32,000 bases of DNA from Flavobacteriaceae bacterium (GTDB lineage: Bacteria; Bacteroidota; Bacteroidia; Flavobacteriales; Flavobacteriaceae): NCBI GenBank assembly GCA_965224465.1, contig OZ245049.1, positions 4,680,001 to 4,712,000 on the forward strand. Direction: 5' to 3'. Made by a program: the position numbers and the translations under genes. This document shows positions 571 through 25,730 of this stretch, in pieces; within the stretch, counting starts at the first letter, position 1, and every line of letters begins with the position of its first letter. The notes beneath the pieces were generated by a model. That model saw nothing but the letters and a program-made list of their open reading frames with translations. It made no database searches and was not told the DNA's origin.

Positions 571-1077
571 TAGTGAATGTAGATGGTCGGATGGATGAGG
601 TGCTTGTTTCTCTTTTTTTTTGGTAAAAAAATAAGGGTGATTGTGTTTTCGGTTTTTAAGATTGTTTTTATCATTGGCTGTTTGCTTATTTATTTAAAAA
701 ATATACAGTTGCTTATTCGGTACTGTTTCCTGTCTTAAACAGTTCTAAGTAGGGGAGGGATTGGAAAAATAAATGAGATGCTGTTTTTATAACGTATTGC
801 GTATTAACGGTCGTGTTTGCTGTGTTTTTAATTTACACCCCTTTTTCTTGTTGTTAATTGTCTGTAAATAAAGGTTGTTGGGATTTGCGTATAACCTTTA
901 TTTATGTATCTTTGAAGTGCGAGGTGCTTTATATGACCTTGTTTATTAATAGTTTTAATAATGCTCCCTGTGCTGTGGATATGATGGAAATAACCTCAAG
1001 TTTAAGGTTTCTGTTGTGGATATATGGGTGTTATGTATGGTCAAGGCTAAACAGCACATTAATATAAAGAATCAACT

Positions 1078-2961
1078 ATGTATAAGGAAAGTCTATTTGA
1101 ATTAATAAGAAAAGAAGAAGTTGTGATTTGGGCTGGTGCTGGATTATCACTTTACGCTGGTTTTCCCTCAGGTAAAAAGCTTGGCGAAATCCTTCTTGAT
1201 AACTTATCTATATCTGAAAAAGAGAATATAAATGTTAATCTTCCTCTACCTAATTTAGCCGAAGAATTCTATAGGATTAAAAACCATAATAGAAACTCAT
1301 TAATCAGGATATTAAATCAAACATTCATAGACAAAAAACCAATATCTACAGAATGTCATCAGAATATTGCACTCATTCCTCATTTTAAAACCATTATAAC
1401 TACTAATTATGATACGTTATTTGAAAATGCTTACCAGCAAAATGGACAATTAGTATACTCTGTAAAGCATATACCATATCTTGAAAATGGTAAAACTCAA
1501 ATATTCAAAGCTCATGGTGATTTGCAAGAACCTGATAGTATAATAATAACATACTCTGACTACAACAAATTCTTCAAAATTAATAGTGAGAATGGTGTTT
1601 ATTGGACTGTTATAAAAGAAAGACTTTCTACTAACAATGTTCTGTTTTTGGGATACAATATTGAAGATCCTAATGTTTCTATAATATTTGATAAAATTAC
1701 TGATGAGTTAGGTTCAAACAGAAAAGAATGTTTTCTTGTAGCTCCCGATTTACCTCCACAAAAAGTTAATGACCTAATTAGAAAAGGTATTAACTATATC
1801 AATTCTACTGCTGAAGTCCTAATTTCTGAATTGCTTCAAAATTTAAAAGAAAATACAATTGCGGATATTGAAAAAGGTAAAACAACAGCAGACACCTTTC
1901 GTCATTTTCTGTCAAATATTGATTTACTACCCGAATTAAAAGCAGAAAAGGAGGGCTTTAAGGTAAAGTCAATTAAAGGAAATAATGATAAAGTTGAGGG
2001 GAAAATGAACCTAACTTTTAAAAATGATCCAGTTTTTATAAAGGAACTTAATGATTATGTAACAGGAAAAAAAATAGGAACTTTTGAAATCTTTGGGGAT
2101 AAGTTAATAAACGCTGATTTTTGGTATGGTGGATTGAAATTTCCAGCCTCAGAAGGTATTGCTAAACTCGAATTTAAGAGTTGTCCAAAAGTTAATACAT
2201 CTATAGATATTCGCTTTGAGGACGGATTTGAGATTACTGATCTACCTATAAAGTTATATGGTTCTCCATCAATAATTGAAATACACGCTGAATTTAAAAA
2301 TGCTGATCTTATTGTCAATCTTAACTTGGAGACCTTACCTGAAACAAAGGTGAATTTTAACTATACGCATAAAGAAATTTGCAATAATGTAAGAGATGAA
2401 ATCGAACTATTTACCTTCTTAAAAAAATTAGGTGAAGGTGAAATATTTACTGTCTTCGCAAAATCGGGAGAAGTTTTCGAAAAATCTTTTCCAATTATGA
2501 AACCATTACAAGATGAAGGATATTTCTTTCTCAATTATTTTAACAACCTCAAAAAGATAGAACAATATTATAAGTTGCGTTTTTCCAATATAAGTATTCA
2601 TTCTGTGACAGATTCGGTAATTAAGAAAGTTGAATTATTAATTACAGTTATTAATGGTGAAAAAGTTGAATATGATTGGAATGATGAATTGACGCTGAAT
2701 TTATTTGATGGTTATGATGAAAATATTGAACAATTAAGGCAAGTTAATGAGATAAATGCTCCTGTAGTTGCGCATCATAAAGTTGAAGAGATAATAGATC
2801 TACATGGGCATGAAATAAATATAGGATATAAAAAGGTTGAATTTTTAGAGTCTTATGTGTCTAACTTGCAGGAAATAATTGATATGAAAGAAGATGTAGT
2901 TAAAATGAAAAGCAAGTGTGATAAAATTTTAATTTCTTACACTAAAGAAGATGATGAATGA
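1078..2961 (+). CDS. SIR2_2-family (defence-type sirtuin-like, putative NADase) protein with an unassigned ~350-aa C-terminal domain
   Basis: 627-aa ORF with an ATG start. N-terminal motifs VVIWAGAGLSLYAGFPSG, IITTNYDTLFE, FKAHGDL...IITYSDY and VLFLGYNIEDPNV are typical of the SIR2_2 (PF13289-like) fold. I recognise no motif in the C-terminal half. Confidence 0.8.
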   Translation: MYKESLFELIRKEEVVIWAGAGLSLYAGFPSGKKLGEILLDNLSISEKENINVNLPLPNLAEEFYRIKNHNRNSLIRILNQTFIDKKPISTECHQNIALIPHFKTIITTNYDTLFENAYQQNGQLVYSVKHIPYLENGKTQIFKAHGDLQEPDSIIITYSDYNKFFKINSENGVYWTVIKERLSTNNVLFLGYNIEDPNVSIIFDKITDELGSNRKECFLVAPDLPPQKVNDLIRKGINYINSTAEVLISELLQNLKENTIADIEKGKTTADTFRHFLSNIDLLPELKAEKEGFKVKSIKGNNDKVEGKMNLTFKNDPVFIKELNDYVTGKKIGTFEIFGDKLINADFWYGGLKFPASEGIAKLEFKSCPKVNTSIDIRFEDGFEITDLPIKLYGSPSIIEIHAEFKNADLIVNLNLETLPETKVNFNYTHKEICNNVRDEIELFTFLKKLGEGEIFTVFAKSGEVFEKSFPIMKPLQDEGYFFLNYFNNLKKIEQYYKLRFSNISIHSVTDSVIKKVELLITVINGEKVEYDWNDELTLNLFDGYDENIEQLRQVNEINAPVVAHHKVEEIIDLHGHEINIGYKKVEFLESYVSNLQEIIDMKEDVVKMKSKCDKILISYTKEDDE

Positions 2962-3171: not shown

Positions 3172-3891
3172 ATGAAGATAAATACTGAAAACATAAAACA
3201 AATGATTTTTCTTCCTCAGGACTTTTTTAAATCTGAAAATTTACTTGAACGGCTAGATAACCAATTTCTTAATCTAAGGATAAATTTAAAAAATAAAAAT
3301 CGTTCAGAAGCAAAGAATGAACTTAATGCCTTTTATCAAATATGTTTGATTAGCGTTAAAATAGAAGAAATTCTTTTAAATGTTCATTTATTTATGTTTG
3401 ACTCACTTATAGAATATTCTAAGCAATTTGAAAGTATTGAAACTTTAAATAATATAATAAAGGCAATAGAAAGTCCTGAATTAAAAGGTAAATTATTTTC
3501 TAAATTACCAATTAAATCTAAAATTCTATATGCACAAGTTCTATTCTACCGTTATGAATTAGAAAACCGAAAGTGTGATGGTAAATTTTCTAAAGAAACA
3601 ACTGATTTTTTATTGAAGTCAAAATTTTATCTTCTTAAAGTTTACACTCAGCATATAGAATTAAAAATTACTCTTTCAGAAAATCAATTATCAACCTGTT
3701 TGTCATATTTATCTATTTGCTTATCTCGGCTATCTAGATGGTTTGAGCCTATTTATTATCTGGAATTAATTAATCAAGAAAACAATCCGAACATAGATTA
3801 TCTATACGCTATAAATTTAGATGCTATAAAAAAGAAAACTTGTTTGAATTATAACTTAAATTCAACTAATAAACGCAACTTTTCGATTTGA
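3172..3891 (+). CDS. hypothetical, predicted mostly helical protein; native 3' end replaced by IS30 sequence
   Basis: ORF in the track runs 3106-3891 (TTG start). The first ATG is at 3172 (MKINTENIK...). The last ~10 codons (NSTNKRNFSI*) lie inside the left inverted repeat of the IS. No recognisable domain. Confidence 0.5.
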   Translation: MKINTENIKQMIFLPQDFFKSENLLERLDNQFLNLRINLKNKNRSEAKNELNAFYQICLISVKIEEILLNVHLFMFDSLIEYSKQFESIETLNNIIKAIESPELKGKLFSKLPIKSKILYAQVLFYRYELENRKCDGKFSKETTDFLLKSKFYLLKVYTQHIELKITLSENQLSTCLSYLSICLSRLSRWFEPIYYLELINQENNPNIDYLYAINLDAIKKKTCLNYNLNSTNKRNFSI

Positions 3892-4975
3892 TTCTATGAT
3901 GGTTATATTTTCAAAACAGAAAAGTAGGAAAACCTACCTTTCTTGTCTTGATGGATATGTATCTTACGGTCTCAAATCTCGAAAAAAGAAGTTGTATGAA
4001 ACACATCACCCAAGCGCAAAGATACACAATTTGTTGCATGTTAAAACAAGGTTATAAACAGGTTGAGATAGCAGCTGCTATAGGAAAAGACAAGTCTGTT
4101 ATTAGCAAAGAGATTAAGCGTAATTCAGACAAAAGAAATGGAGTTTACAAGCATGAATTAGCCCAAAAAAAGTATGCTAAACGTCATAAAGAAAAGCCTA
4201 AAAGAAAACGCTTTACAGAAGATATTCAACAAGCAATAGAGTTGTTATTGCGAGACGATTATAGTCCTGAGCAAGTAGTTGGTGTCCTAAAAAAACAAGG
4301 TAAAGAAACGGTGTCTATTGAGCGTATATATCAGCATATTAGGGAAGACAAGAGGAATGATGGTGATTTACATACACACCTTCGCAGACAGGGAAGGAGA
4401 TATAGAAAACGTGGCTCATCAAAGGATTCTAGAGGGGTTATAAAGAATCGTATTAGTATAGAACAACGCCCTGAAGTTGTTGAACAAAGAAATCGATTTG
4501 GAGATTTAGAGGTCGATTTAATCATAGGTAAAAACCATAATCAAGCCATACTTACCGTAAATGATAGAGCTTCTGGAATGCTTAAAATGAAAAAAGTAAG
4601 CTCTAAAGAAGCAGTTGTTGTCACTAAAGCTATCAATGAAATATTAGAAGACTGGAAGCCTTATCTACATACTATAACAGCTGATAATGGAAAAGAATTT
4701 GCAGGCCATGAGCAGGTTGCAGAAAATTTATGTATTGATTACTTTTTTGCGCATCCATATCACTCTTGGGAAAGAGGATCTAACGAAAATTTAAATGGTT
4801 TGATTAGACAATATTTTGCCAAAGGAAGTGACTTTACAAACCTAACAGATCAAAGAATCAAAGAGGTAGAAACAAAATTAAATAACAGACCTAGGAAGAG
4901 ACATAAATATCAAAACCCTATATTTGTAATGGAACAATTATTATTTAACTAAAAGTTGCGTTTGTGACTTGAATT
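3859..4975 (+). mobile_element. IS30-family insertion sequence (~1.1 kb)
   Basis: Imperfect terminal inverted repeats: caactaataaacgcaactttt (3863-3883) versus the reverse complement of 4951-4971, caagtcacaaacgcaactttt (18/21). Both are flanked by AATT (3859-3862 and 4972-4975), which is either a target duplication or part of the IR. The element encloses a single IS30-type transposase ORF. Confidence 0.8.
3996..4952 (+). CDS. IS30-family DDE transposase
   Basis: N-terminal HTH (ITQAQRYTICCMLKQGYKQVEIAAAIGKDKSVISKEIKRN) and a DDE core (DLEVDLI..., TITADNGKEF, NENLNGLIRQYF) are typical of IS30 transposases. Alternative upstream starts at 3948 (TTG), 3951 and 3957 (ATG). Confidence 0.9.
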   Translation: MKHITQAQRYTICCMLKQGYKQVEIAAAIGKDKSVISKEIKRNSDKRNGVYKHELAQKKYAKRHKEKPKRKRFTEDIQQAIELLLRDDYSPEQVVGVLKKQGKETVSIERIYQHIREDKRNDGDLHTHLRRQGRRYRKRGSSKDSRGVIKNRISIEQRPEVVEQRNRFGDLEVDLIIGKNHNQAILTVNDRASGMLKMKKVSSKEAVVVTKAINEILEDWKPYLHTITADNGKEFAGHEQVAENLCIDYFFAHPYHSWERGSNENLNGLIRQYFAKGSDFTNLTDQRIKEVETKLNNRPRKRHKYQNPIFVMEQLLFN

Positions 4976-4989
4976 CAGCCAATATATAC

Positions 4990-5829
4990 ATGACAAAACC
5001 ACAAACCATACAAATATTCTTGCCCGATGGTTCTCCAACGAGTATACGTGAAGCTGAAATAACCACTAGATTGGTGAAAGCTATTTTATTTCCTAGAAAT
5101 AAGATGGAAGAAGTATCAAAACGTAAAATGGTGCACTATACAGGTGTCTACTTTTTGTTTGGTTATACAGAAGACGGAGCAAAGCCAATGGTATACATCG
5201 GAGAAGGAGAAGATTGCTTTACACGTATACAATCACATAATAGGAAAAAAGATTTTTGGACGCACTGTGTTATTATTGCTGCTAAAACAGATGAGTATAC
5301 CAAAACCGATGGTAAATACTTAGAGCATTATTGTCTGTCAAAAGCAAAAGAAATTGGGCGTTATTCTATTGATAACGATACGGGTTCTAAAAAGCCATCA
5401 ATATCTGAAAGTAGAGAGTATGATTTATTGGACAGTTTTGATACTGCTAAAATATTATTAGCAACATTGGGATTTCCTATTTTTGAAGAAAAGCGTAAAG
5501 TAAAAAGCAAAAAAGAACTTTTTTATTGTCAGAGTAAAAACGTTTCAGCTATTGGTGAATTAACAGATGATGGTTTTTTAGTGTACAAAGATGGAGAATC
5601 AACTGTAGAAGAAACCAAAGGAATGAATAAATGGATTGGGATTCTAAGAAAACGTTTAATAGATGAAGGGATCCTTAAGAAAGTGAACGAGGTGTATATA
5701 TTTCAACAAGATTACATTTTTAATTCGCCTAGTGCTGCTGCCGCTACAATTTTAGGGCGTTCTGCAAATGGTTGGATGTCTTGGAGAGATGAAAACGGGT
5801 TAACGTTAGATGAATTAAAGAGGAAATAG
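4990..5829 (+). CDS. GIY-YIG nuclease-family protein with C-terminal DUF4357-like domain
   Basis: GIY-YIG core GVYFLFG...MVYIGEGEDCFTRIQSH...FW. C-terminal FNSPSAAAATILGRSANGWMSWRDENGLTLDEL matches the DUF4357 signature from memory. ATG at 4990 (MTKPQTIQIFLPDG). The track ORF begins at 4969, inside or adjacent to the IS right end. Confidence 0.75.
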   Translation: MTKPQTIQIFLPDGSPTSIREAEITTRLVKAILFPRNKMEEVSKRKMVHYTGVYFLFGYTEDGAKPMVYIGEGEDCFTRIQSHNRKKDFWTHCVIIAAKTDEYTKTDGKYLEHYCLSKAKEIGRYSIDNDTGSKKPSISESREYDLLDSFDTAKILLATLGFPIFEEKRKVKSKKELFYCQSKNVSAIGELTDDGFLVYKDGESTVEETKGMNKWIGILRKRLIDEGILKKVNEVYIFQQDYIFNSPSAAAATILGRSANGWMSWRDENGLTLDELKRK

Positions 5830-5939
5830 CTTATATTTTAAATGAATCAATCTAAGTTTAGGATAGTATCTAATAATAAATTAAGTTTGCTTTGTCTAAA
5901 TCAAAAATTTCGCCATGTGCCAATCTATAATTTTTGACA

Positions 5940-8390
5940 ATGACAACAGTACAAATAAAAAATAATGCTCAAGAAGCGTTTAACAACAAGGATTACCCAA
6001 AAGCTTTTAATACTTTATGGAAGCTTGGTGTAGTTGGTTTTTTAGAGTTTTCTCAAAGTGAAGACCGTAGGACTAAAAAACAGAACTGGTTAGCTATTAA
6101 CTGGAAAAAGCAGAATACTAAGGGCTATCGCTATTTTTGGGATACCTTTATCTTGCAAGAAAATGTGTTTTCAGCTTGTTTTTCTTCCCAAAGACCGGTG
6201 GAGTTACTGCACAATTATTTTTCAAAAACAATTATTTTTAATGAGGCGTTTGAAACAAAATTAGCCAAAGAATACCCGCGTATTTTTGTGGAAGCTATTC
6301 GGAAAAATGAAGTTTTTTTCAGAGAGGATCGTATTGATTTTTTGCTAAAGGAAGGTTTGTTAGTGGATGAGTTTGTAATTCATCAAGATGTTTGGGAGTC
6401 TTTTCAAAGCGTAGAATTAGAACTCTGGAATCAAATTGAGTCCACAATAGTTATAATTGAAAAATACCCTTTAGAGCATATTTTGTTTTATACCGTAGGC
6501 TATTTTGAAACTAAAAATTACGAAGCTGCTTTTGATCTCCCAAATCAGACTTATTTAGCGGAGGGCTATAGTTTTTTTATAGACTTAATTTTAAGAAATC
6601 CGAAGGTAAAGCAACAAGGTTTTAGCACAGAACAATTTGAGAAGGGCTTTATTCTAACTATTTTTAAAAATAAAGATTTGGAACTTGAAAACGCCATATC
6701 TAAATGTCTTAATCTGATTATGAATAGACAAGGTCTTAATTCTAGTTTTTTTCAGACCTACTGTTTTAACGCTGATTTTGTTCCAAAATATATTTATGAA
6801 TCTTTATGTTTTTATGAGTCTCCAGAATCTCAATACCAGTGGAATGTTGATGAATTTCGCTATAAAGTAAACGAAGAAGTTTATAAGGAAAAGGGAACTC
6901 TTATCGTTGAAAGGCAATTGGAAAACGGAATGCTAATTCCAGGTATAGATGAAGCACATTATTTAAATAATAAGCGTTTAGCATGCAATTTACAAGCTGT
7001 TATTACAGTTTTGAACGATTTGAAATTATCACATTTTAATTCTAAAAACGTAAAAGTTACACCTGTAGCTGTTATAAAACCATTATATGTATATGCTTTT
7101 AATAGATTGGTGAGATATTACGAAGGGTTAAGAAACATACAACAGAGTCCGCCTAAATCCGTAAATAGTTGGAAAACGGCACTTTTGGAACTGGTACGTA
7201 CTCATAGAAAAGGCTACCAACTTCCTTTTGTCTATACATCAAAACAGGAGTATTTTGATTTGAATATAAAAGCAGACAAGGAATTTGACCTAGCAACGAG
7301 TAATCAAGTGTTAAATCAATTTGGATTAAATAGAGTGGGATTAAAACCATTTGATCGTTTTAATTTAAAGTACGCTGTGATAGATACTCCCTTTATATTA
7401 TTAGGAGATTATATATTTAGTCCTGTATTATTTTTTACCAGTTTTACAAGTCAAAACGTATATGTAAAATCCTTACTTCAAAACGATAACAGACGTACTG
7501 CAAGTGATATTGAAAACGTATTAGAAGATTTATTAGTAGCACATGGGCTTGAGATAAAGCACCCAAGTAACAAAGAAGTAAGTTTAATTAATGGGGATGC
7601 AGACCTAATTGTTTCTGATGATAATAATGTCTTATTAATTCAATTAAAACGAACAAGTTTAAGGTTAGATTATAAAGCGCAATATTATGAGCATATACAT
7701 ACAGATTTAAAAGCTGCGAATCAGTTGAATAATGCGGAACAGTATTTTACAACTGAAAACCCTGTATTTGACTTAAAAAACAGGAAAGTAACAAAATGGA
7801 TTGTTTCTAATTCCTTTGAAAAAGTAAATACAGAGATTAACAACTGCTTAAAAGTGAATTATTTAGATCTTGTCAATGTTTTAAGTAATACTGAAGGAAT
7901 GACCTTTAAAACGCTGCCTGATTTTATTTCTTTTTTTGAGGAGGATACCTACTTTAATTCCATTGCTAAAGAATTAATAGAAGGGAATACTATGTTTAAA
8001 GGATTGTTTTCAATATCAAACACAAAACATCGTAATTTCTCATGGAAACACTTTGATGAAGTAAAAGCAACTAAGTACCGTCATTACTATGATAAGGGGA
8101 TAGAATTGAGCGAAAAAGGATATCATAAAAATGCGATCAAGTCACTTAATGAGTGTTTAAAGTTAGAAAATGAAGATTTTGAAGTGCATGGTGTTATAGC
8201 AAATGTTTATGCAGATTTAAAGAATTATAAAAAGGCGTTTTTTCATTATGAAAAAGCCTTAGAAATTGTTCCTAATGAACCTCTAGTACTTAAAAATTAT
8301 GCATATACATTAGCAGAGTCTGGGGATCAAAAAGGGGTGGACTTAGCGAATCAAATGATTAATAATTACCCCTTTTTAAGTTTAATGTAA
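5940..8390 (+). CDS. large uncharacterised protein (816 aa) with a PD-(D/E)xK-like nuclease motif and C-terminal TPR repeats
   Basis: Long uninterrupted ORF. Motif ...DIENVLEDLL...GDADLIVSDDNNVLLIQLKR (nt ~7594-7653) has the spacing of a restriction-endonuclease-like D...(E/Q)xK core. The last ~100 aa (YDKGIELSEKGYHKNAIKSLNECLKLENEDFEVHGVIANVYADLKNYKKAFFHYEKALEIVPNEP...) are TPR-like. No family name recognised. Confidence 0.6.
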   Translation: MTTVQIKNNAQEAFNNKDYPKAFNTLWKLGVVGFLEFSQSEDRRTKKQNWLAINWKKQNTKGYRYFWDTFILQENVFSACFSSQRPVELLHNYFSKTIIFNEAFETKLAKEYPRIFVEAIRKNEVFFREDRIDFLLKEGLLVDEFVIHQDVWESFQSVELELWNQIESTIVIIEKYPLEHILFYTVGYFETKNYEAAFDLPNQTYLAEGYSFFIDLILRNPKVKQQGFSTEQFEKGFILTIFKNKDLELENAISKCLNLIMNRQGLNSSFFQTYCFNADFVPKYIYESLCFYESPESQYQWNVDEFRYKVNEEVYKEKGTLIVERQLENGMLIPGIDEAHYLNNKRLACNLQAVITVLNDLKLSHFNSKNVKVTPVAVIKPLYVYAFNRLVRYYEGLRNIQQSPPKSVNSWKTALLELVRTHRKGYQLPFVYTSKQEYFDLNIKADKEFDLATSNQVLNQFGLNRVGLKPFDRFNLKYAVIDTPFILLGDYIFSPVLFFTSFTSQNVYVKSLLQNDNRRTASDIENVLEDLLVAHGLEIKHPSNKEVSLINGDADLIVSDDNNVLLIQLKRTSLRLDYKAQYYEHIHTDLKAANQLNNAEQYFTTENPVFDLKNRKVTKWIVSNSFEKVNTEINNCLKVNYLDLVNVLSNTEGMTFKTLPDFISFFEEDTYFNSIAKELIEGNTMFKGLFSISNTKHRNFSWKHFDEVKATKYRHYYDKGIELSEKGYHKNAIKSLNECLKLENEDFEVHGVIANVYADLKNYKKAFFHYEKALEIVPNEPLVLKNYAYTLAESGDQKGVDLANQMINNYPFLSLM

Positions 8391-8464
8391 TAATAGGTTT
8401 GTAATAGTAAGTTTATAAGTATCGATTTAATTATCCGAGAGGATCAATTTTAAATTAATTCGAT

Positions 8465-9325
8465 ATGATAACAACTAAATTTATTCCAAGTGTAAATTTT
8501 CATTTATGGGAACCTTGTAATATGCGTTGTAAATTTTGCTTTGCCACGTTTCAAGATGTGAAGCAAACTATTTTACCCAAAGGGCATTTATCAAAAGAAA
8601 AAGCGATAAACGTAGTTAAAAAATTAGCGGACTATGGTTTTAAAAAGATAACTTTTGCTGGTGGAGAACCTATGCTTTGTCCTTGGTTGCCAATGCTAAT
8701 TAAAACAGCAAAGGAGTTAGGGATGACAACGATGCTTGTTACAAATGGGAGTCAACTAACAGAACGTTTTTTAATAGAAAATAAAACCTATTTAGATTGG
8801 ATTGCTATTAGTATAGATAGCCTTAATGAGGCTACTAATTTAAACATAGGTAGGGCTATTGTGGGGAAACGTGCATTAACGGAGGCGTTTTATAAAGAGC
8901 GTATTAAGGATATAAAAAAGCATGGCTACGGTTTAAAAGTAAACACCGTTGTAAATGCGTACAATCACTTAGATGATTTTAACGATTTCATTAATTTTGC
9001 GAAACCTAAAAGATGGAAAGTATTACAAGTGTTACCAATAGAGGGGCAGAACGATCATAAAATAGATGCTTTTAAAATTAGTGGTAAGCAGTTTAATACT
9101 TTTGTAGCAAAACATGCGGGTTTAAATAGTATGGTGCCAGAATCTAATAATGAAATGCAGGGTAGTTATGTTATGATTGATCCTGCAGGTAGATTTTTTG
9201 ATAACTCTAAAGGTAAACATCACTACAGTCATTCTATAGTGAATAATGCCGTAGAAAAAGTAATTAAACAAGTTGATTACAGTTTTAAAAAATTCATACA
9301 AAGAGTTGGTTTGTATAATTGGTAG
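8465..9325 (+). CDS. prokaryotic viperin (pVip), radical-SAM antiviral nucleotide dehydratase family
   Basis: The 286-aa protein aligns by eye with animal viperin along its whole length. CNMRCKFCF (CxxxCxxC, nt 8516-8539) vs CNYKCGFCF; ITFAGGEPML vs INFSGGEPFL; VTNGSQL; LDWIAISIDS vs LDILAISCDS; RWKVLQVLPIEGQN vs RWKVFQCLLIEGEN; VPESNNEMQGSYVMIDP vs VPESNQKMKDSYLILD. It also ends in a C-terminal W. Confidence 0.9.
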   Translation: MITTKFIPSVNFHLWEPCNMRCKFCFATFQDVKQTILPKGHLSKEKAINVVKKLADYGFKKITFAGGEPMLCPWLPMLIKTAKELGMTTMLVTNGSQLTERFLIENKTYLDWIAISIDSLNEATNLNIGRAIVGKRALTEAFYKERIKDIKKHGYGLKVNTVVNAYNHLDDFNDFINFAKPKRWKVLQVLPIEGQNDHKIDAFKISGKQFNTFVAKHAGLNSMVPESNNEMQGSYVMIDPAGRFFDNSKGKHHYSHSIVNNAVEKVIKQVDYSFKKFIQRVGLYNW

Positions 9326-9494
9326 CTGAATATGCTTTGGGTATTTGATTATATAGAGAATAGGACCTCTTTTTTAATTGTAGATAGAACAATATTATGT
9401 TTTAGATAGAAATAAGGGAGGGGGTATTTAGAAAGGATTGGCTGTGCCATCCTAGAAGATGGGGCTGGGTAAGCATGTGAAAACTAATTGCTAT

Positions 9495-9538
9495 CACGTT
9501 TCTATTTGTGGTCTCGGTTATGGCTCAGTTTACCACTT
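9495..9538 (+). repeat. copy 1 of a ~45-bp imperfect direct repeat flanking the DUF45 remnant
   Basis: CACGTTTCTATTTGTGGTCTCGGTTATGGCTCAGTTTACCACTT. In frame it reads M*KLIAITFLFVVSVMAQ, a signal-peptide-like 5' gene end with a stop at codon 2. Confidence 0.5.
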
Positions 9539-9560
9539 TTATATATTCCGATGGTCTTGA

Positions 9561-9780
9561 CCGATTAAATTAAGGAAATTAGAAAAACGTAGAGGAAACT
9601 GTACACCATCGAATACAATTATCATCAATATAGATGCGATTAAATTACCTTAGAGTCCTTGTCCACGAAATAGTTCATGCTGAAATCAGAAGCCATTCTA
9701 AGTCGTTTTGGCTAGCACTGTTTAAGTGTATTGCTAACGAGAAGGTCTTGGATGAAAAGATGAATGAAATTGCAATTTAA
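9561..9780 (+). pseudogene. remnant of a DUF45/YgjP-like (M48-type HExxH) metal-dependent hydrolase gene
   Basis: Reads IKLRKLEKRRGNCTPSNTIIINIDAIKLP*. After a +1 shift it continues VLVHEIVHAEIRSHSKSFWLALFKCIANEKVLDEKMNEIAI*. This matches the rWGSC...ln..L..lP...vvHELaHl...nHs..FW core of DUF45. The N-terminal two thirds are missing, and there is an internal stop plus a frameshift. Confidence 0.65.
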
Positions 9781-9920
9781 TTCACCCTATAAAACGCTGC
9801 TACAAATAAATAGGTTTTTTTTAGGAAAGCCCTAAGTGATGACGGGATCAATATCTAATTTAATGCTAATATCACGCGCTACTTTTAATGTAGGCTCATT
9901 TTTACCTGTCAGGTGGCTGC

Positions 9921-9965
9921 CACGTTTCTATTTGTGCCACCGATTATGGTCAACTTGTGCCACTT
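9921..9965 (+). repeat. copy 2 of the ~45-bp imperfect direct repeat
   Basis: CACGTTTCTATTTGTGCCACCGATTATGGTCAACTTGTGCCACTT, preceded by the palindrome GTGGCTGCCAC. The first 16 nt are identical to copy 1 and the rest is about 60 percent identical. Confidence 0.5.
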
Positions 9966-10054
9966 AGTTTTGGGTATAAATGCTAAATATTGAGCTGTCT
10001 TTACTATTGCGATTGAAGGGGAGGGCTTGAGCTTGAATAATTTTTTGCAAACAT

Positions 10055-11146
10055 GTAAAAGTAGTTTCACTGCGTGAGTTGTTGGTTTTTTAGTTTTAAA
10101 GTTGAGTTTTTGGAGGGATTTGCTTTGCTTTCCCTGAGTGGGGGTTTAGGTACGTATGTAAAACCAATCTCACTGCTTGAGTTGTTGGTTTTTTAGTTTT
10201 AAAGTTGAGTTTTTGGAGGGATTTGCTTCGCTTTCCCAGAGTGGGGGTTTAGGTATGTATGTAAAACCAATATTAATGCGTGCGCTTTTTGGTTGTTTGT
10301 TTTTTAGGTTTAAAGTTGAGTTTTGGGTAGGGGATTCGCTTTGCTTTCCCAGAGTGGGGGTTTAGGTATATGTAAAACCACTCTCACTGCGTGAGTTGGT
10401 TGTTTTTTAGTTTTAAAGTTGAGTTTTGGGAGGGATTTGCTTTGCTTTCCCTGAGTGGGGGTCTTTTGTAAGCGTATAAAACCAAGCTCACTGCGTGAGT
10501 TGTTGGTTTTTTTAGTTTTAAAGTTGATTTTTTGGAGGGATTCGCTTCGCTTTCCCAGAGTGGGGGTTTAGGTATATGTAAAACCAATCTCACTGCGTGA
10601 GTTGTTGGTTGTTGGTTTTTTAGTTTTAAAGTTGAGTTTTGGGAGGGGATTCGCTTTGCTTTCCCTGAGTGGGGGTTTAGGTATGTATTTAAAACCAATC
10701 TCACTGCTTGAGTTGTTGGTTTTTTAGTTTTAAAGTTGAGTTTTGGGAGGGATTGCTTCGCGTTCCCAGAGTGGGGGTCTAGGTATGTATGTAAAACCAA
10801 TATTACTGCGTGAGTTGTTGGTTTTTTTAGTTTTAAAGTTGAGTTTTGGGAGGGGGGATTCGCTTTGCTTTCCCTGAGTGGGGGTTTAGGTATGTATGTA
10901 AAACCAATCTCACTGCGTGAGTTGTTGGTTGTTGGTTTTTTAGTTTTAAAGTTGATTTTTTGGAGGGATTCGCTTTGCTTTCCCTGAGTGGGGGTTTAGG
11001 TAAATGTAAAACCAATCTCACTGCGTGAGTTGTTGGTTGTTGTTTTTTTAGGTTTAAAGTTGAGTTTTGGGAGGGATTGCTTCGCGTTCCCAGAAGGGAA
11101 TCCTTGGCAAGCATATAAAACCAAGCTCACTGCGTGCGCTTTTTGG
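10055..11146. repeat. tandem array of ~11 units of a 100-112 bp repeat, each containing a terminator-like hairpin and a G-rich box
   Basis: Unit starts (CACTGCGTGAG) at about 10068, 10171, 10271, 10385, 10489, 10591, 10702, 10803, 10911, 11019 and 11127. Consensus: CACTGCGTGAGTTGTTGGTTTTTTAGTTTTAAAGTTGAGTTTTGGGAGGGATTCGCTTTGCTTTCCCTGAGTGGGGGTTTAGGTATGTATGTAAAACCAATCT. The hairpin AAAACCAAtCTCACtgcGTGAGttgTTGGTTTTTT spans each unit junction. Confidence 0.9.
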
Positions 11147-11205
11147 TTTTTTTATATCCCAAAAGTTACGAAAGCTAGCTTTCGACGTTTTGGGATATAA
11201 AAAAA
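11147..11205. repeat. 59-bp near-perfect palindrome between the array and the tRNA terminator
   Basis: TTTTTTTATATCCCAAAAgttaCGAAAGCT|AGCTTTCGacgTTTTGGGATATAAAAAAA. 26 paired positions (18 + 8) with one small internal loop. Confidence 0.85.
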
Positions 11206-11227: not shown

Positions 11228-11234
11228 CCTTTTG

Positions 11235-11319
11235 CGGAGAAAGAGGGATTCGAACCCCCGGAGGTGTGACCCTCAACAGTTTTCAAGACTGCCGCATTCG
11301 ACCACTCTGCCATTTCTCC
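11235..11319 (-). tRNA. tRNA-Ser (anticodon UGA), long variable arm, no encoded CCA
   Basis: Reverse complement: GGAGAAATGGCAGAGTGGTCGAATGCGGCAGTCTTGAAAACTGTTGAGGGTCACACCTCCGGGGGTTCGAATCCCTCTTTCTCCG. Acceptor GGAGAAA/TTTCTCC, anticodon loop CT-TGA-AA, T-arm GGGGGTTCGAATCCCTC. Similar to E. coli tRNA-Ser(UGA). Confidence 0.9.
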
Positions 11320-11409: not shown

Positions 11410-12138
11410 TTAAGATTTGAAATCTCTTAATTTTCCGTTTAAAATCAATGGAATATTCGCAGCTTCTCTATCAATAGCTCCGTTTTCGTCGCAGTCAAAA
11501 GATTTATAATTGATCGTAATCAATTTGATTTCCTTTTTTTCTAAGTAATCTTTTTTACGTTGTTTGTAAATGTCGATTTTTGCAGCTCTTGCGCTGTCTA
11601 AAAATCCTTCTTTTGCAATTTCTTCTTTAAAATAACTTTCGAATTCGATGGCTAATTTTAAGTCTTTGTAAAAAGCATCAATAGGCAATTTAGTTCTAGA
11701 TTTGCTGTTTTTATGCATGTCACCTAATAAGAAATCAAAAGTATGTTTACGTACCGCTGTTTGATTTAATATTTCATCACATAAGTTTAAAATAAAAGTC
11801 TCGTCACTGTTTTTAATAGTATTGAGTGCTTTTTGTTTGTTGGTGATGGTTGGTATTGCATTCGTAGGAGTGTATGTAGCTCCTACTTTTACGATGTACC
11901 AATAGATGGTTTTTTCGTTGCGTTCTGCATGTACACATGGAATTTGATCCAAGGTGTTGTTCTTGTCTAGCGTGCGTAAGAGTTTTCTTAGAGGCAATCC
12001 TTTTTTGTTGTCTTTGTTAAATATCCCACCTTTTATTAAAGCTGGCATTAAGTCTTTGGCTGGAATCCAGTTGGTGTCATGCTCCTCAAAGTACTTTGAA
12101 ATGATTTCGTTTATTTTGCTGATGCTATCGTTGTTCAT
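11410..12138 (-). CDS. hypothetical protein (242 aa from ATG; 253 aa from upstream TTG at 12171)
   Basis: Clean ORF between the two tRNA-Ser copies, same strand as both. No family recognised. The C-terminal segment LPIDAFYKDLKLAIEFESY faintly resembles a D...E.E/K restriction-endonuclease-fold core. Confidence 0.55.
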   Translation of the reverse strand: MNNDSISKINEIISKYFEEHDTNWIPAKDLMPALIKGGIFNKDNKKGLPLRKLLRTLDKNNTLDQIPCVHAERNEKTIYWYIVKVGATYTPTNAIPTITNKQKALNTIKNSDETFILNLCDEILNQTAVRKHTFDFLLGDMHKNSKSRTKLPIDAFYKDLKLAIEFESYFKEEIAKEGFLDSARAAKIDIYKQRKKDYLEKKEIKLITINYKSFDCDENGAIDREAANIPLILNGKLRDFKS

Positions 12139-12276
12139 GATCTTGGTATTTCTAAATGTATTTGTTGTCAAACGTTTATTTCAGGAATGACATGTTTTTA
12201 TTCTTGTTTTAACCTGAATTTGAGACGTGTAAGTTACAAAAATCAAGTCGTTTTATTTATAATTAATATAAAATAT

Positions 12277-12311: not shown

Positions 12312-12312
12312 G

Positions 12313-12397
12313 CGGAGAATGAGGGATTCGAACCCCCGGAGGTGTGACCCTCAACAGTTTTCAAGACTGCCGCATTCGACCACTCTGCCAATTCTCC
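12313..12397 (-). tRNA. tRNA-Ser (anticodon UGA), second copy
   Basis: Reverse complement: GGAGAATTGGCAGAGTGGTCGAATGCGGCAGTCTTGAAAACTGTTGAGGGTCACACCTCCGGGGGTTCGAATCCCTCATTCTCCG. Identical to copy 1 except for a compensatory swap of the seventh acceptor-stem base pair (A:U to U:A). Confidence 0.9.
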
Positions 12398-24020: not shown

Positions 24021-24440
24021 ATGAACATTGAATTTTGCCCAAATTGCAACTCGGATTCTTATGTAAAGAGTGGTGTAGTTAAGAATAGACAACGCTATAA
24101 GTGTAAGAAATGTAATTATTATTTTACTGTAAATAAAATGGGGAAGCAAATAGATTCCTATTATGTGAACAAAGCCTTGCAGTTGTATTTGGAAGGTTTA
24201 AGTTATCGTGAGATTGAACGGATACTAGGAATTTCCCACGTGAGTATTATCAATTGGGTAAAAAAATACAACATCAAGCGCCCGTATAGTTTTGAATATC
24301 ACTCTACATATAAGATTTTAAATGCAACGGAGTTGGCAAAGTATTTTGCATCTTCCGATAATTTAAGTGGTGCTGGGGTAATTGTGACCGAGCTAGGTGA
24401 TAAATATATGTTGATTAGGTGGGAGCGTTTTAAAGATTAA
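24021..24440 (+). CDS. solo IS1 InsA-like zinc-ribbon + HTH protein (no transposase partner)
   Basis: CPNCNSDSYVKSG...RQRYKCKKCNYYF zinc ribbon, then the HTH LEGLSYREIERILGISHVSIINWVKKY. This layout matches IS1 InsA / IS1595 N-terminal domains. There is no adjacent DDE ORF. Confidence 0.65.
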   Translation: MNIEFCPNCNSDSYVKSGVVKNRQRYKCKKCNYYFTVNKMGKQIDSYYVNKALQLYLEGLSYREIERILGISHVSIINWVKKYNIKRPYSFEYHSTYKILNATELAKYFASSDNLSGAGVIVTELGDKYMLIRWERFKD

Positions 24441-24442
24441 CT

Positions 24443-24475
24443 ATACTATTTAGCGAAATAGTATATCAGATTTTA
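24443..24475 (+). terminator. hairpin directly after the InsA-like gene
   Basis: ATACTATTTagcgAAATAGTAT (9-bp perfect stem) followed by ATCAGATTTT. The T run is weak. Confidence 0.35.
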
Positions 24476-24554
24476 ATAAAGTTGTTTTTCTTTGCAACTT
24501 GTGAAAGCAAATTTTAAGAATAAAACAATTTATTAAATTTTAAGAAATTAATTT

Positions 24555-25730
24555 ATGAAACGTAAAATTTCAACGGTATTAGCACTTTTAATAGGGGGCG
24601 CATTTTTAAGTTATGGTCAATCAGAGACTAAAAAAGTAAGTGTTAAGTTTAGTGGGTTTGTAAAAACAGACTTTATGTATGATTCTAGGCAAACAACAAA
24701 TGCACGGGAAGGTCACTTTATGATTTTGCCAGCACCTGAAAAAATGGATGGGACTAAAGATTTAAACGATCAATCTAATGTGAACTTTTTATCCATTCAG
24801 TCCCGTTTAAGAGCAAAAATTTCTGGTCCAGATTTTTTTGGAATGAAAACATCTGGGATGATAGAAGGAGCGTTTTTCGGAAATTCGAATGCCACAACAG
24901 GAGAATTTAGATTGCGTCATGCTTTTGTGAAGTTATCGAACGATAAAATAGACCTTATAGTTGGACAATATTGGCATCCCATGTTTGTAACCGCTGTTTT
25001 TCCAGGGACCTACTCTTTTAATACAGGAGTACCTTTTCAACCATTTTCTAGAAATCCTCAATTGAGAATAGAAACCAAAGGAAATGTAAAATTTATTGGG
25101 GTCATGTTTACCGAACGTGATTTTAAAACAAGAGGCGCCAGTGTAAGTCAATCTGGAATTCCACAGTTTCATGCACAATTGCAATTTGGGGATGCATCTA
25201 AGACACTTGGAGGTTTTGGAATAAATCTTAAAACGGTCCGTCCTGGATTGGGAATGGATAACTTTTCTTCCTTGGCTTATATTGGATACTATAGAACTAA
25301 ATTTGGAAATATGACATGGAAAGCAGAGGCTACCTATGGAGATAATATGTCAGATTTATTACAAATAGGAGGTTTTGGTACGGATGCTAGTAATGATTAT
25401 ATAAGTACAAATACGTTGTCTATGTGGACCGAATTTAGTGGAGATTTTTCTGAAACAATGGAGTGGGGAGTCTTTGGAGGATATACAGAAAATGGTGGAT
25501 TTGGTGAAAAGGCAACACATGTAGCTGGTTTTCTATCATCTTCAGTTGTTGATGCTTGGAGAGTTGCACCTCGCATAGGATGGAAATCAGGAAAGTTGAA
25601 AATAGGAGTCGAAACAGAATATACTTCTGCACAATACGGAGGCTTAGATGCCAATGGAAAAATGGATGCAGGAACTACAGATGCAGTTGGTAATTTAAGA
25701 CTAATAACCACTGCGATTTATAATTTTTAA
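24555..25730 (+). CDS. outer-membrane beta-barrel porin
   Basis: Signal peptide MKRKISTVLALLIGGAFLSYGQ, alternating beta-strand pattern, and C-terminal aromatic residue (...AIYNF). Confidence 0.7.
   Translation: MKRKISTVLALLIGGAFLSYGQSETKKVSVKFSGFVKTDFMYDSRQTTNAREGHFMILPAPEKMDGTKDLNDQSNVNFLSIQSRLRAKISGPDFFGMKTSGMIEGAFFGNSNATTGEFRLRHAFVKLSNDKIDLIVGQYWHPMFVTAVFPGTYSFNTGVPFQPFSRNPQLRIETKGNVKFIGVMFTERDFKTRGASVSQSGIPQFHAQLQFGDASKTLGGFGINLKTVRPGLGMDNFSSLAYIGYYRTKFGNMTWKAEATYGDNMSDLLQIGGFGTDASNDYISTNTLSMWTEFSGDFSETMEWGVFGGYTENGGFGEKATHVAGFLSSSVVDAWRVAPRIGWKSGKLKIGVETEYTSAQYGGLDANGKMDAGTTDAVGNLRLITTAIYNF

Follow-up and report, generated by a model that had tools for sequence, protein, structure and literature searches.

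A SIR2 protein with an unmatched C-terminal region in a Flavobacteriaceae defence island: a candidate single-gene anti-phage NADase

How would a SIR2 effector sense infection if it carries none of the sensor domains of the named SIR2 defence systems? The question is raised by a gene, here called SIR2-CTD, in a 32-kb stretch of DNA from a Flavobacteriaceae bacterium (the window, that is, the whole 32,000 nucleotides analysed; positions 4,680,001 to 4,712,000 of contig OZ245049.1). Few effectors of prokaryotic immunity have been reused as widely as SIR2 NADases, which also have eukaryotic descendants, and the systems built on them differ in how infection is sensed. In the open reading frame (ORF) listing, SIR2-CTD is complete at positions 1078..2961 of the + strand, with an ATG start and a stop codon, and encodes 627 residues. 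Because more than 340 homologs, with 40–69% identity and nearly all of 620–640 residues, cover the protein over its full length, 1078–2961 is a real gene and no chance frame. An initial annotation, made from the letters of the sequence, had described it as a stand-alone SIR2_2 protein of unfamiliar architecture, with a beta-rich C-terminal domain that might work together with a helical ORF downstream. We find that the protein joins a SIR2 domain of an immune type to a C-terminal region that is confidently modelled yet unmatched in the libraries searched, and that it does so without a conserved partner gene.

The effector half can be placed by several independent comparisons. Residues 1–265 (1078..1872, + strand) form a SIR2_2 ('SIRim', ThsA/KomC-like) NADase domain according to Pfam, PADLOC, a PDB profile search and Foldseek. 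Pfam SIR2_2 (PF13289), the only Pfam match of the protein, covers residues 104–226 (E=3e-28) with 99.1 bits, four times its gathering score of 24.5, and the top PADLOC match is ThsA1 (E=1.6e-33), aligning residues 7–229 with positions 14–230 of a 478-position model. When the PDB was searched with a 42-sequence family profile, the matches were KomC (4.4e-31; 8zsf, residues 4–247), ThsA (1.6e-29; 6lhx) and DSR2 (2.3e-23), all confined to residues 4–263. A full-length AlphaFold2 model (mean predicted local distance difference test score, pLDDT, 88.3; predicted template modelling score, pTM, 0.71) matched BcThsA in Foldseek with E=3.5e-15 and superposed on ThsA, KomC and DSR2 over only ~270–330 columns, which correspond to the SIR2 domain.

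The catalytic motifs lie where they would be expected, and the initial annotation was right to place GAGLS, TTNYD, HGD and LGY in the first ~270 residues, since all four are in the translation. The glycine-rich NAD-binding loop GAGLS spans residues 20–24 (1135..1149), TTNYD with the catalytic Asn110 residues 108–112 (1399..1413), HGD with the catalytic His146 residues 146–148 (1513..1521), all on the + strand, and LGY residues 191–193; TTNYD and HGD align with those of ThsA and KomC. In an alignment of 107 family representatives, clustered at no more than 50% identity, G20, G22 and S24, T108, T109 and N110, and H146 and G147 are invariant, and Y111 and D112 are at least 90% conserved. Altogether there are 13 invariant positions, all inside the SIR2 domain, and their inclusion of N110 and H146 indicates that the catalytic machinery of a ThsA-type NADase is intact and strongly constrained. 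Judged on these alignments, the domain is of the ThsA/KomC type with an intact Asn110/His146 catalytic pair, the protein appears to belong to the immune-type SIR2_2 ('SIRim') superfamily and NADase activity is predicted for it. According to one study (bioRxiv 10.1101/2024.09.18.613514), every antiphage SIR2 protein annotated by DefenseFinder falls in one of two SIR2 clades, defence systems are enriched 12-fold in the neighbourhoods of this clade, and the bacterial clade of the SIRim superfamily is, as a whole, predicted to be immune.

The second half of the protein is of another kind. AlphaFold2 modelled residues 270–627, from an alignment of 27 sequences, with a pLDDT of 88.7 and a pTM of 0.74, as two modules: CTD-A (residues 270–440; 1885..2397, + strand), predicted as a mainly beta module that comes after a short helix, and CTD-B (residues 441–627; 2398..2958, + strand), predicted as an alpha/beta module. 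In the models, residues 283–437 are mainly beta, with ~12 strands and 2 helices, and residues 438–627 are mixed alpha/beta, so that the description of this half as beta-rich holds for the former but not for the latter. A profile–profile comparison indicated that CTD-A and CTD-B are unrelated (probability 1%), and an internal duplication of the C-terminal region was rejected, as the corresponding self comparison contained no repeat.

No library identified either module. Past residue ~265 the protein had no match in Pfam, PADLOC, NCBIfam or PHROGs, and residues 270–627 of 27 family members had none in Pfam. Sequence searches of the PDB with 51-sequence profiles yielded nothing significant for CTD-A (best E=0.45) or CTD-B (best E=0.098), nor did a search with a 27-sequence profile of the whole C-terminal region. 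Foldseek comparison of the C-terminal model with 350,542 PDB chains gave no match with E<=0.001 (best E=0.027, TM-score ~0.1), and comparison with the viral BFVD library likewise gave none at that threshold. Weak fold matches to beta sliding clamps, FABP-like barrels, OspA and Aha1 had E values of 0.03–0.2, TM-scores of ~0.1–0.14 and probabilities mostly below 0.2 and at most 0.47, and were set aside as noise. The DHHA2 region of family II pyrophosphatase, which reached E=0.023 with the 27-sequence profile, was rejected when it receded to 0.31 with the 51-sequence profile. SLOG, APAZ, a DSR sensor, SAVED and STAND were each considered as the identity of the C-terminal region and rejected for want of either a profile match or a fold match. 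Because the PDB library holds ThsA, DSR2, SPARSA, SIR2-HerA and Kongming structures, SLOG, APAZ, the DSR2 solenoid and KomB are excluded within the sensitivity of Foldseek. The C-terminal region is thus unmatched in the libraries searched (Pfam, PADLOC, NCBIfam, PHROGs, PDB and BFVD) though confidently modelled, and the absence of a SLOG motif from its ~350 residues, remarked on in the initial annotation, extends to every known domain sought in the libraries and by PDB sequence and Foldseek searches. Measured against the folds in the PDB and BFVD, the modelled region is a candidate, not a proven, new fold.

Sequence divergence sets the two halves apart: mean pairwise identity within the family is 55% for the SIR2 domain and 32.5% for the C-terminal region. 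In the latter, only P370 in CTD-A and L491, E495 and F502 in CTD-B are at least 90% conserved among the 107 representatives, which contain no conserved polar constellation there, E495 being the only conserved polar residue. So few conserved positions, and no polar constellation, do not suggest a second enzyme; fast divergence without conserved polar residues fits instead a binding module under diversifying pressure. On this pattern the C-terminal region is most readily seen as a putative sensor or regulatory module.

Whatever it binds, the region travels with its effector. Among 1.84 billion cluster representatives (50% identity), an exhaustive HMMER search with a C-terminal profile detected 359 proteins, 276 of them at E<=1e-10; in the 150 matches listed of these the C-terminal region was always fused to a SIR2 domain of the same type. 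Among those matches it occupied residues ~270–625 of proteins of ~625 residues, or else lay in shorter entries. Entries of 430–465 residues, with the C-terminal region starting at residue 70–100, looked at first like a second architecture; they were rejected as truncated gene calls, since all those retrieved begin inside the SIR2 domain (e.g. '...LFLGYNLEDPN'). At the fetched loci, a search with hidden Markov models of the three parts identified 56 ORFs with all of them and 11 ORFs, of 620–670 residues, with SIR2 and one detectable half. Searching all ORFs of these loci with the same models revealed the C-terminal region without SIR2 in the same ORF only in L042 (6662–7876; Chryseobacterium proteolyticum), L063 (6654–7808; Niabella hibiscisoli) and L055 (6001–7900; Planococcus soli). 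As the tblastn match spans the whole query in L042 and L063, split or frameshifted genes are indicated there, and the separation of the two parts at the three loci suggests frameshifted or decaying copies. The C-terminal region is, in the material examined, obligately fused to this SIR2 domain.

We next compared SIR2-CTD with the named systems. With ThsA of type I Thoeris it has in common a two-part layout, effector first and regulatory region second, and an N-terminal SIR2_2 domain in which the GAG, TTNYD and HGD motifs recur. It differs in length (627 versus ~476 residues), in having no SLOG/STALD domain (alignment to the ThsA profile ends at position 230, and the C-terminal model has no match to ThsA structures), and in the absence of a ThsB/TIR gene both from the window ORFs scanned (all of at least 100 residues across 1–32 kb that do not lie opposite a larger gene, together with a border gene at 1–330) and from 42 homologous loci. 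KomC of Kongming is the best PDB sequence match of the SIR2 domain, with a target-normalised TM-score of 0.80 and its catalytic His at the same alignment position, and its H146N variant is the form whose structure was solved with NAD fragments (9xvc). However, KomC has 264 residues and no C-terminal region, whereas SIR2-CTD has an extra 360; KomC acts with KomB and dITP (PDB 9xvc, 9v12), whereas SIR2-CTD has no conserved neighbour; and its C-terminal model has no match to the KomB–KomC complexes in the PDB library.

The closest functional analogy is with DSR1 and DSR2, which are also single genes with an N-terminal SIR2 effector and a C-terminal sensor, and whose SIR2 domains are related to that of SIR2-CTD (besides the PDB match to DSR2, PADLOC Dsr1 has E=3.1e-06). 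These proteins have ~1000–1260 residues, and the C-terminal domain of DSR2 is described as an alpha-solenoid (PMC11850899), in contrast to the beta and alpha/beta C-terminal region of SIR2-CTD. The size difference had been pointed out in the initial annotation and is confirmed by the NCBIfam Dsr1 model (1263 positions) and the DSR2 chains in the PDB (~1005 residues). Moreover, the NCBIfam Dsr1 match reaches 20.9 bits where the cut-off is 1400 and is confined to residues 13–205, and the C-terminal model has no fold match to the many DSR2 entries in the PDB. Unlike SIR2-HerA (Nezha/Gao_Her), SIR2-CTD has no HerA in the window scans or among the 25 most frequent neighbour families at 39 loci; unlike SPARSA, it has no APAZ or pAgo match in Pfam or PADLOC and no fold match to SPARSA entries of the PDB; and unlike Avs5 (SIR2-STAND), it has no P-loop or NACHT/NB-ARC match in Pfam or PADLOC. 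TIR, HerA, pAgo/APAZ and STAND NTPase domains had no match among the scanned window ORFs, in keeping with the earlier remark that the window contains no TIR, HerA or short-pAgo partner. The uncharacterised PADLOC entries PDC-S25, PDC-S21 and PDC-S65 resemble SIR2-CTD as single-gene, SIR2-containing defence candidates, but the match to PDC-S25 is partial (E=6.5e-15), joining residues 86–213 of the query to positions 129–257 of 528, and so concerns the SIR2 core only. SIR2-CTD therefore falls outside Thoeris, DSR1/DSR2, SIR2-HerA, SPARSA, Kongming, Avs5 and PDC-S25 as these are defined; its logic is most like that of DSR2 and its effector most like those of ThsA and KomC. A full-text literature search found no description of this combination of SIR2 and C-terminal region.

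If the protein is not one of these, does it act alone? ORFs were called in 85 loci and their 821 products clustered, and the largest neighbour cluster besides the SIR2 family itself was present at 5 of the 85. The immediate neighbours of 40 non-redundant full-length members were almost all singletons, and a search for small hidden partners as well, taking stop-to-stop ORFs of at least 30 residues within 1.2 kb on either side, found none present in more than 3 of 42 loci. One recurrent neighbour had the size of ThsB (L007, L034, L035); it proved to be a serine resolvase and was rejected as a partner. SIR2-CTD is thus a stand-alone protein without a conserved partner gene, as the initial annotation had it. 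In the window, a candidate Bacteroidota-type promoter lies upstream at 884..914 (+ strand; TTTG −33 box, 19-nucleotide spacer, TATCTTTG −7 box), 164 nucleotides before the start codon. It is the sole match to TTTG-N17-23-TAnnTTTG in the 32 kb, where 3.8 would be expected by chance; proposed from position alone and with a match count not above chance, this promoter is compatible with an independent transcription unit.

A two-gene system with the helical ORF at 3172–3891 (+ strand), as had been suggested for the C-terminal domain, would be the obvious exception at this locus: the ORF is on the same strand, 211 nucleotides beyond SIR2-CTD, and a consensus scan found no intrinsic terminator between the two. 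We regard it as highly improbable. The ORF is an orphan with no match in the four libraries Pfam, PADLOC, NCBIfam and PHROGs, and among 5.8 billion proteins it has two relatives, both 88–90% identical and on contigs of 1.2–1.7 kb; no homolog of it stands next to a SIR2 gene at the other family loci examined. Its 3′ end, furthermore, is derived from an IS30-family insertion sequence. The ORF departs from its relatives at residue 229, precisely the point at which the element's left inverted repeat (3859–3883) starts, and that repeat supplies the last ~10 codons of the ORF, so that the ORF is altered at the 3′ end in this genome; all three sequences diverge just past residues 226–228 (...KTCLN). 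As a property of the family, the two-gene reading is in effect refuted.

Without a partner to indicate function, the surroundings of the family become informative. Most hosts belong to Bacteroidota (Flavobacterium, Chryseobacterium, Kordia, Dyadobacter, Mucilaginibacter, Chitinophaga, Draconibacterium and Bacteroidales), with Sporomusa, Clostridia (some Bacillota) and two methanogens outside that phylum. At 39 loci, 147 neighbours were scanned with PADLOC and Pfam, which identified, among others, type I restriction–modification (R-M) subunits, mad3, mad8, AriA, PD-Lambda-2_B, Schlafen/AlbA_2, resolvases and integrases. At three Flavobacterium or Flavobacteriaceae loci (L027, L030 and L039; ~4990–10900 in each) the SIR2-CTD gene lies inside a type I R-M operon, in the order of a ~330-residue gene without Pfam match, SIR2-CTD and a ~995-residue HsdR, with gaps of −3 to 63 nucleotides. 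A 68% identical relative (L086) is carried by an integrative element that also encodes RteC, an integrase, an excisionase-type helix-turn-helix (HTH) protein and a 647-residue reverse transcriptase, and another member (L088) sits between an HTH/methyltransferase cluster and prophage tail and lysis genes. One full-length copy was found on an IMG/VR viral contig (L089); the GenBank phage collection contained no full-length match to the protein. To lie repeatedly within an R-M operon or close to mads, PARIS components, pVip or PDC-S14 is the standard signature of defence genes.

The same surroundings bear on whether the protein acts against phages at all. It might be a regulated NAD-dependent enzyme with another role, such as a target-specific ADP-ribosyltransferase or deacylase, or a toxin serving competition between mobile elements or their maintenance. 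Some homologs do lie amid housekeeping genes, the frequent linkage to resolvases, integrases and transposases would also be expected of an addiction gene or one engaged in inter-element conflict, and the split or frameshifted copies at L042, L063 and L055 are as expected of a dispensable and possibly costly gene. We nevertheless think a non-defence role unlikely: the domain is of the SIR2_2 type, matched by PF13289 only, its closest matches are defence NADases and not classical sirtuins, and the recurrent defence-type placement just described argues against such a role.

The reading we favour, and hold to be probable although by no means secure, is that SIR2-CTD is a single-polypeptide abortive-infection NADase whose C-terminal region is a sensor or regulator, with direct sensing of a phage protein as the preferred mode. 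In uninfected cells, the two unrelated C-terminal modules would hold the SIR2 enzyme inactive; upon infection, they would bind a cue, which by analogy with DSR2 is most likely to be a phage protein, and the enzyme would be released or assembled, most likely through a change in oligomeric state. The SIR2 domain would then hydrolyse NAD+, and the resulting depletion would arrest the infected cell. A switch in oligomeric state is the most plausible route because the active state of ThsA and KomC is a helical filament of SIR2 domains, as found in PDB entries and reported (bioRxiv 10.64898/2026.03.01.708072). Direct recognition of a phage protein is favoured because there is no linked signal synthase, because pocket residues are not conserved and because the C-terminal region diverges quickly. 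The NADase activity, the anti-phage function, the sensing role, the trigger and the oligomerisation are what we infer, and several points weigh against them: the family is known here from sequence and predicted structure alone; ThsA and KomC are triggered by signals that other proteins make and not by direct sensing of phage; at some loci (L001, L003) the neighbours are housekeeping genes only; and the association of the family with defence genes, real as it is, is expressed in raw counts of loci.

The way in which ThsA and KomC are triggered also lends itself to a different view of the C-terminal region, namely as a new small-molecule receptor that replaces SLOG, the signal being made by an enzyme from another part of the genome, for instance a TIR protein, a cyclase or a nucleotide-modifying enzyme. 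SIR2-CTD would then be an orphan, shared effector and not a self-sufficient system. Its closest solved SIR2 relatives are indeed KomC and ThsA; binding of a cyclic ADP-ribose isomer to the SLOG domain activates ThsA (bioRxiv 10.64898/2026.03.01.708072), and KomC filaments have been solved with KomB and dITP (9xvc, 9v12). CTD-A and CTD-B, moreover, are compact modules of ~170–190 residues, a size more typical of ligand-binding domains than of a sensor such as the alpha-solenoid of DSR2 with its ~700 residues. Yet no TIR, cyclase or KomA/KomB-like neighbour recurs in the 42 loci, where the one neighbour of ThsB size is a resolvase. Receptors of an invariant ligand usually retain a conserved binding site, whereas here no polar pocket residues are conserved and E495 stands by itself, and the quick divergence of the C-terminal region is better suited to variable phage proteins. 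We consider an orphan effector of this sort a poor prospect. The most specific form of the favoured reading, in which SIR2-CTD is an unnamed single-gene 'DSR-like' anti-phage sirtuin of Bacteroidota, also represented in Bacillota and methanogenic archaea, whose C-terminal new fold directly recognises a phage component and activates a ThsA-type NADase, is more tentative than its general form, and we would put it at slightly under an even chance.

In the window itself, SIR2-CTD lies in a low-GC stretch (27–34%) with candidate defence genes. The border gene, the end of a VF530-family gene (1–330), is separated from it by a 750-nucleotide gap in which a Flavo-1 RNA (RF01705) was detected at 493–567 on the − strand (E=3e-11; 59.8 bits, with the gathering score at 42), which suggests a source within Flavobacteriia. 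Downstream, between the helical ORF and the next defence candidate, lies the complete IS30-family element (3859–4975), with 25-nucleotide terminal inverted repeats (3859–3883 and 4951–4975) that are 88% complementary and a transposase at 3948–4952 (NF033563, E=1e-86). The right repeat of the element extends over the TTG start listed for the gene of a PDC-S14 candidate defence protein (4969–5829; 286 residues), a full-length PADLOC match (E=2e-107) with a DUF4357/RAMA-like C-terminal region. Then follow, at 5934–9325, the gene for an 818-residue NERD-TPR protein (viperin-associated NERD over residues 485–674, E=7.5e-20; C-terminal TPR repeats) and, directly after it, that for a 286-residue prokaryotic viperin (pVip; NCBIfam viperin_w_prok, E=3e-98), a pair that resembles a pVip system with a large NERD-TPR companion. 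PDC-S14, the viperin-associated NERD and pVip all fall within 6.5 kb of window sequence.

The low-GC stretch ends at a tandem array and two tRNA-Ser genes, beyond which lie metabolic genes. The array (10053–11152), between the viperin gene and the tRNA-Ser genes, consists of 10.4 copies of a 103-nucleotide unit with 82% matches and a strong G-over-C skew, and had no match to an Rfam family. The two tRNA-Ser(TGA) genes (11234–11319 and 12312–12397, − strand) are 1078 nucleotides apart and enclose an ORF of 253 residues without Pfam match (11410–12171, − strand). They mark the border between the low-GC defence island and genes for TauE, chorismate synthase and glutamate synthase, and may be a former integration site. 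Farther on, amid housekeeping genes, a 139-residue HTH/Terminase_5-like gene followed by a 391-residue one without Pfam match (24021–25730) may represent a small mobile element.

Few defence systems of Bacteroidota are known to have been characterised experimentally, and the family of SIR2-CTD, mainly found in that phylum, extends to methanogenic archaea. Its practical value is moderate, as the effector chemistry is as expected and uncharacterised SIR2 fusions had already been predicted to be immune; what would be new is the sensor module and not the principle, in a family that is sizeable, phylogenetically broad and without a conserved partner gene. If the most specific form of the favoured reading is true, a further class of sensor would be added to those already linked to SIR2 effectors, namely SLOG, APAZ/pAgo, HerA, STAND and the alpha-solenoid. 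The combination of a familiar effector with an unmatched, confidently modelled module offers access, by way of one tractable gene, to a new sensing mechanism.

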